In this document: positions 21,069-25,108 of the stretch, piece after piece
How the letters are laid out: the number at the start of each line of letters is the position of its first letter
Position numbering within the stretch: position 1 is the first letter of the stretch
Assembly: GCA_964461905.1 (NCBI GenBank)
Contig: CAYWVI010000002.1
Location: 661-64,660, forward strand
DNA from: an uncultured Rhizobium sp.
GTDB lineage: Bacteria > Pseudomonadota > Alphaproteobacteria > Rickettsiales > UBA1997
Direction of reading: 5' to 3'
DNA length: 64,000 bases
Translations under genes and position numbers: made by a program
The notes under the pieces: generated by a model
Seen by the model: the letters and a program-made list of their open reading frames with translations, nothing else
The model's database searches: none
Told to the model about the DNA's origin: nothing

Positions 21069-21968
21069 ATGAAAAATTATCGCCTTTACCAAATTGATTC
21101 CTTTACCAAAGAAAAGTTCAGCGGTAATCCAGCATCAGTTGTAACTAATGCCGACGGCTTAACTGAAAAACAAATGCAACAGATTGCCCGCGAGCTAAAT
21201 AACTCAGAAACAGCATTTGTTTTTTCAGCAACAAATTCTGACCATGATGTTTGGGTAAGATTTTTTACTCCCACTTGTGAAGTGCCAATTTGCGGACATG
21301 CAACAATTGCAGCACACTACGCCAGAGCGATTGAACTTAATCTTGATAGTTGCAAATTAGTGCAAAAAACTGGTGCCGGTAATTTAGCTGTTGAGTTGGT
21401 CAAAGAAGGTGATGATTACCAAATTATTATGACGCAGGGAAATTACACTTCGCAGCCAATTGATAAATTTTTTCAACTCAAAATTCTGCAAGCTCTGGGA
21501 ATTTTAGAAGATGATTATGACCAAAAATGCCCAATTGAAATTGCTTCAACCGGACATTCAAAAGTGATGATTGCAATTAAATCGAAAAAACTTTTAAACA
21601 ATCTAAAGCCAGATTTGCCAGCTCTTAGCGAGTTAAGTAAAAAAATTGGCTGCAATGGTTATTATGTTTTTACCTTTGATTCCAAAGATCCGACCATTCT
21701 GGTTTGTGGTAGAATGTTTGCTCCTGCAATTGGCATAAATGAAGATCCTGTAACTGGAAATGCAAACGGTCCGCTTGGTGCTTATTTAATCGATCATTCG
21801 CTTGTAAAGCATGATGGACAATATTTTTCTTTTAAAGCTGAGCAAGGAGAGGCAATAGATCGCAAAGGTGTTGTAGAAGTGATGGTTGATATCGAAAATA
21901 ACAAGCCACAAAAAGTAAGAATAAAAGGAGACGCGGTGATTGTTTTTAGGTCAGAAATTCACTTATAA
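21069..21968 (+). CDS. PhzF-family isomerase/epimerase-like protein
   Basis: 299 aa with an FTKEKFSGNPASVV start, SETAFV, the CGHATIAA catalytic-region pattern and EDPVTGNANGPLGAYL. Confidence 0.85.
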   Translation: MKNYRLYQIDSFTKEKFSGNPASVVTNADGLTEKQMQQIARELNNSETAFVFSATNSDHDVWVRFFTPTCEVPICGHATIAAHYARAIELNLDSCKLVQKTGAGNLAVELVKEGDDYQIIMTQGNYTSQPIDKFFQLKILQALGILEDDYDQKCPIEIASTGHSKVMIAIKSKKLLNNLKPDLPALSELSKKIGCNGYYVFTFDSKDPTILVCGRMFAPAIGINEDPVTGNANGPLGAYLIDHSLVKHDGQYFSFKAEQGEAIDRKGVVEVMVDIENNKPQKVRIKGDAVIVFRSEIHL

Positions 21969-22011: not shown

Positions 22012-22213
22012 AAAAACCGCGGTAAACATGACGCGCGCTTGTGGGGAAGATGTGCACCTTGGAGAAAAAAGTTTGCAGTGAGAAATGGCGGTTCATAACC
22101 CCCAACTTGCTAAATTTTCTCCAATAGGTCGTCGAATCACTATTTGAGAGGTGTCACCATGTACACCGAAAATTTTGCAGTTGTATAAATGCTTGTTCAC
22201 ATCCTCCCTTTTG
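22012..22213 (-). ncRNA. candidate structured RNA / structured 3' UTR of the three-gene operon
   Basis: Visibly GC-richer than its surroundings, with no ORF. There is a perfect 10-bp helix (TTGGAGAAAA 22059-22068 with TTTTCTCCAA 22116-22125) stacked on an imperfect ~16-bp helix (22041-22058 with 22151-22168). On the minus strand it ends with CGCG-N10-CGCG-G-T7 (~22012-22040). Confidence 0.3.
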
Positions 22214-22891
22214 CTAACTATTTTTTTGTACGTCGGAATAATCATACTTTTTTCTAATCATTAGTAAAATTTCTTCCCAAGCTAGCATATTAATTTTTGC
22301 CTCTTCGTATAAAAATTTACGCCTCAAAGCTGAGGTTGTTTCATATTCAGCATCATCGTCTTGATCATCTTCATATCTTTTGCCGATTATTATTCCGCCG
22401 ATCTTTACGCAACATCCCGAGTAAGATAAATCATTCATTTGTTGTTTAAAAAGATCTCCACAACTAGTTAAATAGTGCACATATTCTATCATTTGCGTTT
22501 CTGCCTCAATTAAATCATAGCTAGGAAGGTATCTTGATGAGTTTTTAGGCTTAATAAAGATTGGTAATTTAGGAGATTTGCATTCGTAAACTACTACATA
22601 CTTTTGAGATGCTGATAGGTTTGTTCCTGTTATCGGTTTTAGTGAATTCTTAAAATTATCGGATTTTTTTGAACCACACAAAATAATGTCAGCTCTTTTA
22701 CCATCTAAACTAGTTGTGACCTCAAATAAGACAGCATTTAGTTCTAAATTATGAAGATCCGCCAAAACTTCTGCAAAATCGAGAAACTGATCGCGACAAT
22801 TATTCTCGTTACCAGTGTCCACTAATTTTTTAAGTTCTAGAAATTTTTCTTTAGATGGTCGTAGATCTTTTAATATTTTTTTACTCATCAC
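22214..22891 (-). CDS. stand-alone Shedu-type (DUF4263-like) PD-(D/E)xK nuclease domain protein
   Basis: 225 aa with the ordered motifs KRAD68IILCG, YVVVYE103CK105SP, EAETQ133MIEY, GGIIIGKR and LAWEEILLMI. The start overlaps the upstream ORF by 4 nt (ATGA). Confidence 0.6.
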   Translation of the reverse strand: MMSKKILKDLRPSKEKFLELKKLVDTGNENNCRDQFLDFAEVLADLHNLELNAVLFEVTTSLDGKRADIILCGSKKSDNFKNSLKPITGTNLSASQKYVVVYECKSPKLPIFIKPKNSSRYLPSYDLIEAETQMIEYVHYLTSCGDLFKQQMNDLSYSGCCVKIGGIIIGKRYEDDQDDDAEYETTSALRRKFLYEEAKINMLAWEEILLMIRKKYDYSDVQKNS

Positions 22892-23478
22892 TCTGCACCT
22901 ATATATTTTGGTTGCAGATCAGGATTTAGCTGAATGAGGTTTCCGCTATTTAAATCTTTGAATAAAAAGCTGTTACCATCAAAGTATATATAACGAGAAA
23001 GATTTTTTTGAGAGAAATAATTGTTAAGTTGCTTTATTTGATCAGCGGTCAAAATCTGCTGGTATGCCATGGTCTCATATAGAAAAAAACGACCAAAGCT
23101 TTTATGTTCAAAATTTGCACCAATTTTGTAAAGTGAGTGGAAATAGTTACTACTGGGTTCTACATTAGTTAGTTTTTCCGCTACTTTATTATCCCCTAAC
23201 CATATCTCTAGCTTCACAGTTCTTTCATAAGAACACAGGAAGTAGATCGGTATATTTTTATCATTCGGAACCTCTATCGATATAAAATCAACAAGCTCAT
23301 TGTTGTTAATAAGTCCAAGATCATCTGCTTTTGGTATTCCAAAAAATACCGAACCATTTTTAACGAATGCCGACAATAAAAGGCCATCTTCTCCATAAGA
23401 AAAAATATACTCTTCGTCTTTATAAGATGATTGTATGTTTAAGTGAAAAACTAATGTAATTTCTTTTACTTTTTCCAT
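22888..23478 (-). CDS. LamG/ConA-like beta-sandwich protein (putative sensor or partner subunit)
   Basis: 196 aa with a beta-rich pattern (ITLVFHLNI, YIFSYGEDGLLLSAFVKNGSVFFGI). The core ends in GRFFLYETMAYQQILTADQIKQLNNYF, resembling the Laminin_G_3 terminal signature IDEVRIYNRALSxxEIxxLY. Confidence 0.45.
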   Translation of the reverse strand: MEKVKEITLVFHLNIQSSYKDEEYIFSYGEDGLLLSAFVKNGSVFFGIPKADDLGLINNNELVDFISIEVPNDKNIPIYFLCSYERTVKLEIWLGDNKVAEKLTNVEPSSNYFHSLYKIGANFEHKSFGRFFLYETMAYQQILTADQIKQLNNYFSQKNLSRYIYFDGNSFLFKDLNSGNLIQLNPDLQPKYIGAE

Positions 23479-23507
23479 TCTAAATTTTTTTCTAATGTTT
23501 TTATTAT

Positions 23508-24377
23508 CTAACTTATTTTTCCCTCACAAACTCTCTTTGTAATTTCCAACAGCTTCTTTACATCCTTTTCCAAGATCTCTAAAGCTTCTTTGGAAATTAT
23601 ATATTTTGGATCATACCTACCACCGATGTAAGCATATTCTAAAAGTTTAAAGCGTTCTTTTTCTTCTTCAGTTTCTCGTATAAACAAGCTTCGTAATTCA
23701 GGAAAATATTCTTCGCACTCCTTGCCAAGAATTGCTAAAAAATGCTCGTTAGGATTATAAAGAGTAAAAACTAAAAGGATCGTTTTGTAGGCTGCTTCTG
23801 CTGATTGGTGAAGATTAAAGGCTGCGATTGATAGATATTTAGGATTCTCTAAGTGTTTGTTTTTGTTAATTTCGTAGTTTTCAAAGAATGCTTTTGCATC
23901 AAAGAACCAATGTTCAAAATATTCTTTTTGAAATTTTTTAATTTCTTCATCACTTAAATTTCTACGATCAGCGAAGCTAAAATTGCCAGCATCAAAAATA
24001 GTAATCCCTTCTTCAGTAATGTCAGAGTAAAAATATTGGCCAACTGAAAGCTTATTGTTTAGCTCCTCAATATCATGCGTTAAAATTCTTGGATCAGCGC
24101 TCAGTTTTAAGTTTCGACATTTTTCACCAATATCATGCCAAAGATTTGTATCAAGTGCGGTGATGGCATCGCGGGTTACAACCAAAACATCATAGTCAGA
24201 AACATGACCAGATTTTCTGTCTTCAGCTAAATCTTTCTTTTCTTTGTAATCTCCGCGAGCGTAAGAACCAAATAGGATAATCTTTTCAACATCTTTGCAG
24301 TTATCACGAATTGTGGCGATGATTTTTGTTATCTCATCTTGTTTAAGTTGAGGCAGGTGTTTTAAGGATTTTTTCAT
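23508..24377 (-). CDS. fused minimal nucleotidyltransferase (MNT) - HEPN domain protein
   Basis: 289 aa. The N-terminus has the Pol-beta NTase motif ILFGSYARGD...SDYDVLVV. The C-terminal helical domain carries LEYAYIGGRYDPKY (PF05168-type HEPN signature), and no Rx4-6H motif was seen. Confidence 0.75.
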   Translation of the reverse strand: MKKSLKHLPQLKQDEITKIIATIRDNCKDVEKIILFGSYARGDYKEKKDLAEDRKSGHVSDYDVLVVTRDAITALDTNLWHDIGEKCRNLKLSADPRILTHDIEELNNKLSVGQYFYSDITEEGITIFDAGNFSFADRRNLSDEEIKKFQKEYFEHWFFDAKAFFENYEINKNKHLENPKYLSIAAFNLHQSAEAAYKTILLVFTLYNPNEHFLAILGKECEEYFPELRSLFIRETEEEKERFKLLEYAYIGGRYDPKYIISKEALEILEKDVKKLLEITKRVCEGKIS

Positions 24378-24756
24378 TCATCTTTTTTGTAATTAATAAT
24401 CTGAAAAAAATTATCAGAAACGATCAAAAAAACAACTTTTCATAACAAAGAAACAAATTTTGGTTGAGTTATCGGCAAAAAAAGAAGCAGATTCAGCGAT
24501 TAAAATTTTTAGATCTCCAAATCTCCATTTCACGTTCACCGAATTTTGATCACCAATATCAAGCATCTTCAGAGATCACTTACAAAAACTATCTCTTATT
24601 TTCTCCATTTTCTTACCACAAACAGCAAATTTCTGAAAATTAAAAGCGGTAAAAAAGTTAGTAAAAGGGGGTGTTTCCTGCTGCGAATAGTGCGAATTTT
24701 ATTTTTGCTTCAATTTTTTTTCGGTGCACATCGTGCTAGAGCGGTGCGGATGATCC

Positions 24757-24786
24757 ATACCGAGAGTTCGAATCTCAGATGGTGAT
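24757..24786 (+). pseudogene. tRNA-Ser-derived fragment (variable-arm end plus T-arm), inverted relative to the intact tRNA-Ser
   Basis: CGAGAGTTCGAATCTC (24761-24776) is identical to 16 nt of the neighbouring tRNA-Ser T-arm, and the preceding ATAC also matches with a 1-nt indel. The distal T-stem, acceptor stem and CCA are missing. Confidence 0.5.
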
Positions 24787-24834
24787 ATTTTGAAAAGCGG
24801 TCTGAAGCCTTTCTGAGGTAAGACTAAGGCAGTT

Positions 24835-24924
24835 TGGCGGAAGGAGAGAGATTCGAACTCTCGTATAGTTTTACCCATAACACGCTTTCCAAGCGTGCGC
24901 CTTAAGCCACTCGGCCATCCTTCC
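24835..24924 (-). tRNA. tRNA-Ser (anticodon GGA), CCA encoded
   Basis: The sense strand GGAAGGATGGCCGAGTGGCTTAAGGCGCACGCTTGGAAAGCGTGTTATGGGTAAAACTATACGAGAGTTCGAATCTCTCTCCTTCCGCCA folds by hand. It gives a 7-bp acceptor stem, anticodon loop TTGGAAA, a long variable arm and a GAGAG/CTCTC T-stem. Confidence 0.93.
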
Positions 24925-24988
24925 AAATAAGCTCTTTTTTTTCTCCTTAAACTCCAAACCAAAACTCCTAAAATCCTATCTTGCAAAT

Positions 24989-25069
24989 TTCTGGATCCCC
25001 GCCTGCGCGGGGATGACGTTGTAAGTGTGATGTTTAAGCGGTCATCCCCGCGCAGGCGGGGATCCAGAA
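24989..25069. repeat. perfect 29-bp inverted repeat (23-nt spacer); each arm contains its own GC hairpin and resembles a type I-E CRISPR repeat
   Basis: Left arm TTCTGGATCCCCGCCTGCGCGGGGATGAC (24989-25017) is the exact reverse complement of right arm GTCATCCCCGCGCAGGCGGGGATCCAGAA (25041-25069). Each arm contains the internal palindrome ATCCCCGC-NNNN-GCGGGGAT. Confidence 0.95.
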
Positions 25070-25108
25070 GATTGCACAAAACAGAGATGCTATGCACCAA
25101 AACACAAA

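Follow-up and report, generated by a model that had tools for sequence, protein, structure and literature searches.

We analysed three adjacent genes in a 64,000-nucleotide (nt) stretch of DNA from an uncultured alphaproteobacterium (assembly GCA_964461905.1, contig CAYWVI010000002.1), which is called the window throughout. All three open reading frames (ORFs) lie on the minus strand. ORF1 (23508..24377) encodes a protein of 289 amino acids (aa) with a nucleotidyltransferase (NTase) and a HEPN domain, ORF2 (22888..23478) encodes a 196-aa protein that is the candidate partner of a nuclease, and ORF3 (22214..22891) encodes the Shedu-family nuclease, which has 225 aa if translation begins at the GTG, or 224 aa if it begins one codon later at the ATG (22888). 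A tRNA-Ser(GGA) gene (24835-24924, minus strand) is located directly upstream of this cassette in the same orientation, and a phzF-like gene (21069-21968, plus strand) is convergent on ORF3. An earlier note, made from the letters of the sequence, had proposed that the three co-directional genes between tRNA-Ser and phzF form one novel defence system; its coordinates for them were confirmed, and the motifs it had quoted for ORF1, ORF2 and ORF3 were all found at the residues it had assigned to them. The comparisons described below point to a different division of the locus, namely a probable two-gene Shedu system placed behind an independent ORF1.

ORF3 was searched against profile and structure libraries. 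The Pfam model SduA_C (PF14082) matched it with 29.3 bits (cut-off 27) over residues 29-207 of 225 and profile positions 4-157 of 159. Ahead of this domain lie only about 28 residues, and ORF3 has no fused N-terminal domain of the kind found in Type 1 Shedu. Its motifs include D68, E103, K105, Q133, IIIGKR at residue 167 and LAWEEIL at residue 203, and E29, D68, E103, K105, Q133 and Y137 were invariant in a 10-member alignment of the family. E29 represents motif I of the PD-(D/E)xK core, D68 motif II, E103-x-K105 motif III, and Q133 (with Y137) motif IV. They correspond to motifs I-IV of Bacillus cereus Shedu, which are E204, D249, E264/K266 and Q295 (Gu et al., bioRxiv 10.1101/2023.08.10.552793; Mol Cell 2025), and the spacing from K to Q is 28 residues in ORF3 versus 29 in the B. 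cereus protein. The AlphaFold2 (AF2) model of ORF3 was of low confidence, with a predicted local distance difference test score (pLDDT) of 55. A Foldseek search of the PDB with this model returned Shedu structures in all of the top seven positions (B. cereus 8ti9 and 8ti8, and E. coli SduA 8ps5 and 8ps4), and 8ti9 matched with an E-value of 7e-5 and template modelling (TM) scores of 0.52/0.61. Profile sequence searches of the PDB with ORF3 returned nothing. Among the ORF3 relatives in other loci (numbered with an L in this text), the SduA_C score was 28.6 in L007 and 20.9-21.5 in L010 and L016, and no match was obtained for L008; by these scores the family sits at the edge of the SduA_C model. 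The proposal that ORF3 is a Shedu/DUF4263-type PD-(D/E)xK nuclease without an N-terminal sensor domain was thus upheld by the above-threshold SduA_C match, the invariant motifs and the Shedu structures at the top of the Foldseek results. Judged by its sequence, ORF3 is a nuclease-only Shedu-family protein of Type 2 architecture with an intact Shedu-type catalytic centre.

The stop codon of ORF2 and the start codon of ORF3 overlap in the sequence GTGATG (22886..22891). A 4-nt overlap written as ATGA had been reported for this junction. The length holds, as GTGA with the GTG start, but the literal ATGA does not, since the junction reads GAG TGA TG; with the ATG start of ORF3, the overlap with the ORF2 stop is 1 nt (TGATG). 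Such a stop/start overlap implies translational coupling of the two predicted genes. An exhaustive phmmer search of 1.84 billion representative proteins yielded about 10 relatives of ORF2, all of them stand-alone proteins of 196-232 aa, and the contigs carrying them were scored in all frames against the three window proteins. Wherever the downstream DNA sufficed (L001-3, L006, L007, L008, L010, L011/L012 and L016), the next gene after the ORF2 homologue encoded an ORF3 homologue of 202-225 aa, with phmmer E-values of 1e-10 to 1e-41. The two genes overlapped by 1-4 nt in the window and in these loci except L010, which showed a 2-nt gap, and the conserved, translationally coupled arrangement was therefore found in every locus with enough downstream sequence. 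A true ATGA overlap is indeed present at six related junctions (L007, L008, L016, L004, L017 and L018). Moreover, the pairwise identities of ORF2 and of ORF3 co-varied across loci (Pearson 0.92, Spearman 0.75). At the level of gene order and divergence, these data establish ORF2 and ORF3 as an obligate, co-diverging gene pair. In a scan of one genome per species, no ORF2 relative and two distant ORF3 relatives were found, and neither ORF2 nor ORF3 had a match in viral contigs or in PLSDB plasmids. One ORF2 homologue, in L015 (459-1600), has 232 aa with a 35-aa N-terminal extension; behind it, two short ORFs (75 and 65+ aa) stand in place of a full nuclease gene, and L015 may be a decayed copy of the pair.

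Distant relatives of ORF3 (P0006, P0007, and proteins from a Rubrivivax metagenome-assembled genome (MAG), L017, and a Patescibacteria MAG, L018) keep the two-gene layout with a different partner. In this sister clade (L004 442-1643, L005 1-1111, L017 1366-2519 and L018 7040-8274), a nuclease gene encoding 202-236 aa has an ATGA overlap with the gene of an upstream protein of 173-182 aa. This upstream protein has no family assignment, and no homology between its family and the ORF2 family was detectable (hhalign probability 0.3%). Because the sister clade has the same layout with another partner, the nuclease clade as a whole seems to require an upstream partner.

We then compared ORF2 with known protein families and folds. 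It had no match in Pfam, PADLOC, NCBIfam or PHROGs, and none of the 10 family members matched any Pfam family, including the LamG/ConA-like ones, even at E<=10. Within the sequences searched, the ORF2 family is uncatalogued and very rare. The AF2 model, built from only 2 sequences, had a pLDDT of 57.8 and a predicted TM score (pTM) of 0.62, and it was nearly all beta with one helix at about residues 145-157. Foldseek searches with this low-confidence model found BoNT Hc and CBM40 in the PDB (E 2e-5, TM 0.45) and repeatedly 'ConA-like' or 'LamG-like jellyroll' proteins in BFVD (E 5e-5 to 1e-2). The sequence GRFFLYETMAYQQILTADQIKQLNNYF, which had suggested the end of a Laminin_G_3 domain, is located at residue 129. 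The suggested LamG/ConA relationship therefore stands in part: the protein is mostly beta and its model resembles jelly rolls in two structure libraries, but the assignment to Laminin_G_3 at the sequence level did not hold. On the basis of the model, ORF2 is probably a ConA/LamG-like jelly-roll beta-sandwich. Some other leads gave nothing further. A circularly permuted LamG_3 domain, with the C-terminal 'FDGN' segment moved to the front, gave no Pfam match for 8 permuted family members; a PDB profile search with ORF2 gave only a chance match to Schlafen (E 0.24); and the similarity of two large proteins, P0019 (832 aa) and P0020 (789 aa), to ORF2 came down to internal repeats (Big_6 and others), and they are not relatives.

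ORF1 showed clear matches to both of its domains. The HEPN model PF05168 scored 41 bits (cut-off 22) at residues 155-282, and the NTase part at residues 18-92 matched Polbeta (29.7 vs 26.9) and NTP_transf_2 (26.2 vs 21). The HEPN half also matched PDB entry 4nqf with an E-value of 3e-11. The NTase motifs LFGSYARGD and SDYDVLVV begin at residues 35 and 60, respectively, and the HEPN signature LEYAYIGGRYDPKY at residue 246. In the NTase domain, G37-S38, S60-D61-Y62-D63 and D102 were invariant in 14 ORF1 homologues, as were H190-Q191, E194, Y197-K198, E211-H212 and R254-Y255-D256 in the HEPN domain. The spacing from GS to DxD is longer than in minimal nucleotidyltransferases (MNTs), and the MntA equivalog model of NCBIfam gave 15.1 bits, below its cut-off of 60. 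The Rx4-6H RNase motif was found nowhere in ORF1, and the family also lacks it, with an invariant GGR254-Y-D instead. The Pfam domains and the family alignment thus bear out the description of ORF1 as an NTase and a PF05168-type HEPN domain in one chain without an Rx4-6H motif. By conservation, the NTase centre is intact and the conserved site of the HEPN domain is not the Rx4-6H RNase motif. In HEPN domains fused to an MNT, the RNase residues are usually missing and the domains serve the transferase (Anantharaman et al. 2013, PMC3710099), a description that ORF1 fits. With the GS...DxD motif intact and the RNase motif missing, a nucleotidyltransferase whose HEPN-derived domain binds substrate or nucleotide is a more likely identity for ORF1 than a fused toxin-antitoxin (TA) pair, and ORF1 is most likely active as a nucleotidyltransferase.

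The distribution of ORF1 differs from that of the pair. The ORF1 family comprises 1,693 homologous clusters at 90% identity, with more than 70 of them at 72-85% identity to ORF1, and is more than 100 times larger than that of the ORF2-ORF3 pair. The relatives are labelled as uncultured Alphaproteobacteria/Pseudomonadota, and 365 plasmids carry more distant full-length homologues (32-35% identity), which stand alone there in unrelated contexts. We surveyed 25 loci with ORF1 homologues of about 80% identity (L019-L043) and found that the downstream co-directional gene differs among them. The cargo genes of ORF1 homologues encode a Dsr1-like protein of 1,152-1,164 aa (PADLOC E 2.5e-44), ZorA-ZorB-ZorC with a fourth gene (type I Zorya), an 847-aa and a 333-aa protein together with a GmrSD_C nuclease, an AbiU2-like HEPN protein, a 1,358-aa protein containing a helix-turn-helix (HTH) motif, proteins without assignment, or the ORF2-ORF3 pair. 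Between the stop codon of the ORF1 homologue and the start of its cargo there are usually 0-30 nt. Nucleotide similarity between loci fades within the last ~10 codons of ORF1, no conserved DNA motif was found after the ORF1 stop across the loci, and their outer flanks were not syntenic. At least 11 loci, among them L001 (1582-3200), the cassette's closest relative, and L019 (3372-4990), carry an AbiEi-AbiEii gene pair that is located 10 nt upstream of their ORF1 homologue. These Abi genes are not present in the window, where a 457-nt non-coding spacer (24378..24834) and the tRNA-Ser gene take its place; tblastn searches with AbiEi and AbiEii gave no match in the window, and the spacer contains no AbiE remnant.

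ORF1 was found upstream of the pair only in L001-L003, where the shared block has 83% nucleotide identity to window positions 24377..22179 (blastn) with nothing beyond it. The block runs exactly from the ATG of ORF1 to 35 nt past the stop of ORF3, and its right-hand limit in the window is this 3' tail (22179..22213, minus strand). Independent loci that lack ORF1 ahead of the pair number at least five (L004, L007, L010, L013 and L016), and the scoring in all frames counted seven that have ORF2-ORF3 but no ORF1. On this distribution, ORF1 is an autonomous, widespread gene that in this bacterial lineage looks like the constant first gene of a defence slot with variable cargo. It parallels BrxR/CapW-type regulators in being one conserved gene ahead of many unrelated defence cargos, but it is an enzyme-like NTase-HEPN protein and not a WYL/HTH transcription factor. 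Regulators of this type are named in the report on KELShedu (PMC12577705). The Dsr1-like cargo deserves a separate remark. The 1,164-aa protein of L019 (5870-9364) aligns to PADLOC's Dsr1 model over the C-terminal two-thirds of the model, at the E-value given above; it has no Pfam hit on record, hence no SIR2 domain, and no assignment for its first ~330 residues, and it may represent a form of Dsr1 that carries another effector.

Comparison with described systems showed that the claim of a triad without precedent had been too strong, since nuclease-only Type 2 Shedu proteins are common and a two-component system, KELShedu, has been characterised. Type 2 proteins account for 2,286 of the 7,687 catalogued Shedu proteins (Gu et al.). 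Like them, ORF3 consists essentially of the SduA_C/DUF4263 domain, with motifs I-IV intact. However, Type 2 Shedu has been described as a single-gene system, whereas in the ORF3 clade the nuclease gene is always preceded by a partner gene to which it is translationally coupled, and ORF3 barely exceeds the Pfam threshold and has a weak score with the PADLOC SduA model. In KELShedu from E. coli, both genes (KELA and KELB) are needed, the proteins form a complex, and a 3-bp spacer separates the genes (PMC12577705). This layout, a small upstream gene nearly abutting a DUF4263 nuclease gene in a bicistronic unit, is also that of ORF2-ORF3. As far as the published descriptions of the two proteins go, KELA is a 110-aa SH3/WYL-like beta-barrel, in contrast to the jelly-roll-like model of the 196-aa ORF2, and KELB has 361 aa with a KELA-binding N-terminal domain, which ORF3 lacks. 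The Type 1 Shedu structures (8ti8, 8ti9; 8ps4, 8ps5) share the catalytic motifs and probably the nuclease fold with ORF3 and are the best structural matches of its model. A regulatory module that restrains a tetrameric nuclease has been proposed there, as it may be here for ORF2 and ORF3; the sensor is fused in cis in Type 1, whereas the candidate regulator at our locus is a separate polypeptide. In the literature searched, no link of Shedu to LamG or ConA-like partners was found. We class the pair as a Shedu variant with KELShedu as its organisational precedent, its ORF2 differing from KELA in size and predicted fold, and not as a new three-gene system. ORF1 has the same NTase-HEPN order and the same GS...DxD motif as FhepTA (PMC13000451) and type VII HepT/MntA; FhepTA and HepT are described as carrying the Rx4-6H RNase motif, unlike ORF1 and its family.

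We think it probable, with some reserve, that the locus is a defence islet in which a two-gene split Shedu (ORF2-ORF3) stands behind the independent NTase-HEPN gene ORF1. The neighbours of the pair or of related modules include AbiEi/AbiEii in L001, HicAB in L004 and a relaxase in L010, and the location of the pair in the same slot as known defence systems and near these genes indicates a defence context. By analogy with the solved Shedu enzymes, ORF3 may form a homotetramer. The B. cereus Shedu protein becomes toxic and constitutively active when its N-terminal and linker domains are removed (Gu et al.), and since this isolated nuclease core is toxic, ORF3 should need restraint. ORF2 would be made in a fixed ratio with ORF3, bind to the ORF3 oligomer and do in trans what Type 1 Shedu does with its fused N-terminal sensor domains. 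Until infection provides a cue by which the nuclease is released or reoriented, ORF2 could keep it inactive, and ORF3 would then cleave DNA. In this scheme we infer a physical ORF2-ORF3 complex, a sensor or inhibitor role for ORF2, anti-phage activity, and the enzymology proposed for ORF1.

Several results weigh against such a scheme. The AF2 models of ORF2 and ORF3 are of low confidence (pLDDT 55-58), and their fold matches, with TM scores of 0.35-0.6, are suggestive only. No sequence profile connects ORF2 with LamG or ConA, and no fusion of an ORF2 homologue with a nuclease was found by phmmer among the 1.84e9 representatives, so that nothing directly equates ORF2 with the Shedu N-terminal domain. 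The PADLOC SduA model PDLC00385 matched ORF3 weakly (16.9 bits, E 7.6e-4) and at residues 96-142 only. Most of the related loci are short metagenomic contigs, with between 110 and 1,100 bp ahead of the pair from which to judge that ORF1 is absent. ORF1 and the pair run in the same direction, 29 nt apart, and form the single 83%-identity block in L001-3, so that co-transcription and some functional link are possible. Furthermore, a nuclease-only Shedu protein may act unaided in the manner of a restriction enzyme (Gu et al.), in which case ORF2 might do something else.

The last two points correspond to two of the rival explanations that we weighed. If all three genes formed one system, the NTase-HEPN protein would modify or regulate the ORF2-ORF3 nuclease complex or signal by a nucleotide. 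The genes do run in one direction, no terminator-like site lies in the short ORF1-ORF2 gap, the three are shared as one block in L001-L003, and ORF1 homologues precede their cargo at operon-like distances in most loci. Nevertheless, at least five independent loci have the pair but not ORF1, and ORF1 belongs to a family of far greater size whose ~80%-identical members precede Zorya I, Dsr1-like, GmrSD_C and AbiU2-like cargo, which makes any link generic and not specific to this nuclease. The copies of the triad are all close relatives (78-86% aa identity) and thus amount to one evolutionary observation. The pair's independence from ORF1 and the many unrelated defence systems behind ORF1 homologues argue against the three genes as one system, as the earlier note had proposed them, and we regard it as distinctly unlikely. 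Another reading takes ORF3 alone as a restriction-like Type 2 Shedu, with ORF2 unrelated or accessory (for example, a specificity or localisation factor) and unneeded for control of the nuclease. It agrees with the proposal of Gu et al. that Shedu proteins consisting of DUF4263 alone have constitutive activity and tell DNAs apart by their sequence or modification, and with the fact that a Salmonella Type 2 Shedu protects by itself. The adjacency of ORF2 and ORF3 in every locus with enough sequence, their co-divergence, and the retention of the layout with a different 173-182 aa partner in the sister clade all speak against it, and it appears very unlikely.

The third rival sees in the pair a TA-like addiction module, in which ORF3 is a constitutive DNase toxin and ORF2 its antitoxin, and which stabilises the islet or a mobile element without sensing phages. 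The overlap of a small upstream gene with the gene of a toxic enzyme, the toxicity of the Shedu nuclease core by itself, and neighbours that include the TA systems HicAB and AbiE as well as a relaxase are all compatible with this. ORF2, however, as a folded beta-sandwich of ~200 aa without a DNA-binding domain, is large for an antitoxin, and the Shedu-family nucleases assayed so far are anti-phage. The two roles are also not mutually exclusive, given that many abortive-infection systems are TA-like. As an explanation that would replace a split Shedu defence system, we consider the addiction module unlikely.

Shedu is usually seen as a single protein with a fused N-terminal infection sensor. 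If the preferred reading of a split Shedu is true, a nuclease core that is always paired with an interchangeable separate partner would mean that the sensor can be supplied in trans, and the pair would be a simple system, of just two proteins, in which to study what keeps the Shedu core in check and what sets it free. The partners known so far for such 'sensor-swapping' would be the ORF2 jelly-roll family and the 173-182 aa family of L004, L005, L017 and L018. As the ORF2 family is missing from Pfam, PADLOC, NCBIfam and PHROGs, current defence finders would overlook the module. An NTase-HEPN gene of ~80% identity ahead of Zorya, Dsr1-, GmrSD-, AbiU2- and Shedu-like cargo marks a defence hotspot that can be mined for new systems, and possibly a shared component. 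By analogy, the ORF1-type protein could serve Zorya I, the Dsr1-like, GmrSD_C and AbiU2-like systems and the split Shedu alike as a regulator, a priming enzyme or an anchor for cassette capture. The full combination, in which this clade's short Shedu nucleases always need a second subunit, with unrelated, separately encoded partners acting in trans in place of the fused sensors of classical Shedu, and in which many unrelated defence systems share an ORF1-type protein as their upstream component, seems to us rather unlikely to hold in both parts.

The genomic setting of the cassette was also examined. Its G+C content (about 0.31-0.34) is no different from that of its surroundings, the organism has ~32% G+C, the 8-kb region showed no near-identical plasmid DNA, and yidC, phzF and lysR, which flank the cassette, are syntenic with none of the related loci. 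The spacer between tRNA-Ser and ORF1 is the presumed promoter region of the cassette; promoter- and terminator-like matches in the region did not exceed the expectation from shuffled sequences. The tRNA-Ser gene was called by ARAGORN and matched the Rfam tRNA model with 58 bits. A position just downstream of a co-oriented tRNA gene was found for three independent copies of the two-gene module, namely at tRNA-Ser in the window, tRNA-Gln in L018 (6828-6898) and tRNA-Lys in L013 (125-199), a pattern that points to tRNA loci as sites where the module inserts as a small islet; no integrase was seen. In L010 (1527-2804), the copy of ORF2-ORF3 adjoins the relaxase gene, which indicates that the module is also carried on a conjugative or mobilisable element. 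An att-like inverted repeat of 18 nt around the cassette (22155-22172 and 24718-24735, 16/18 matching) was dismissed as chance, because shuffles of the region yield ~0.9 such pairs.

Two further features were noted near the tRNA-Ser gene. A perfect 16-nt inverted copy of its T-arm (24761-24776 vs 24848-24863) lies ~60 nt downstream of the tRNA, in surroundings that resemble a degenerate tRNA fragment on the opposite strand, for which neither ARAGORN nor Rfam made a call. Between yidC and tRNA-Ser, a G+C-rich palindrome at 24982-25076 has 36-nt arms that are 94% complementary and a 23-nt loop. It may be a terminator or an element like the repetitive extragenic palindromic (REP) sequences, and its core, CCCCGCCTGCGCGGGGATGAC, occurs once in the window.

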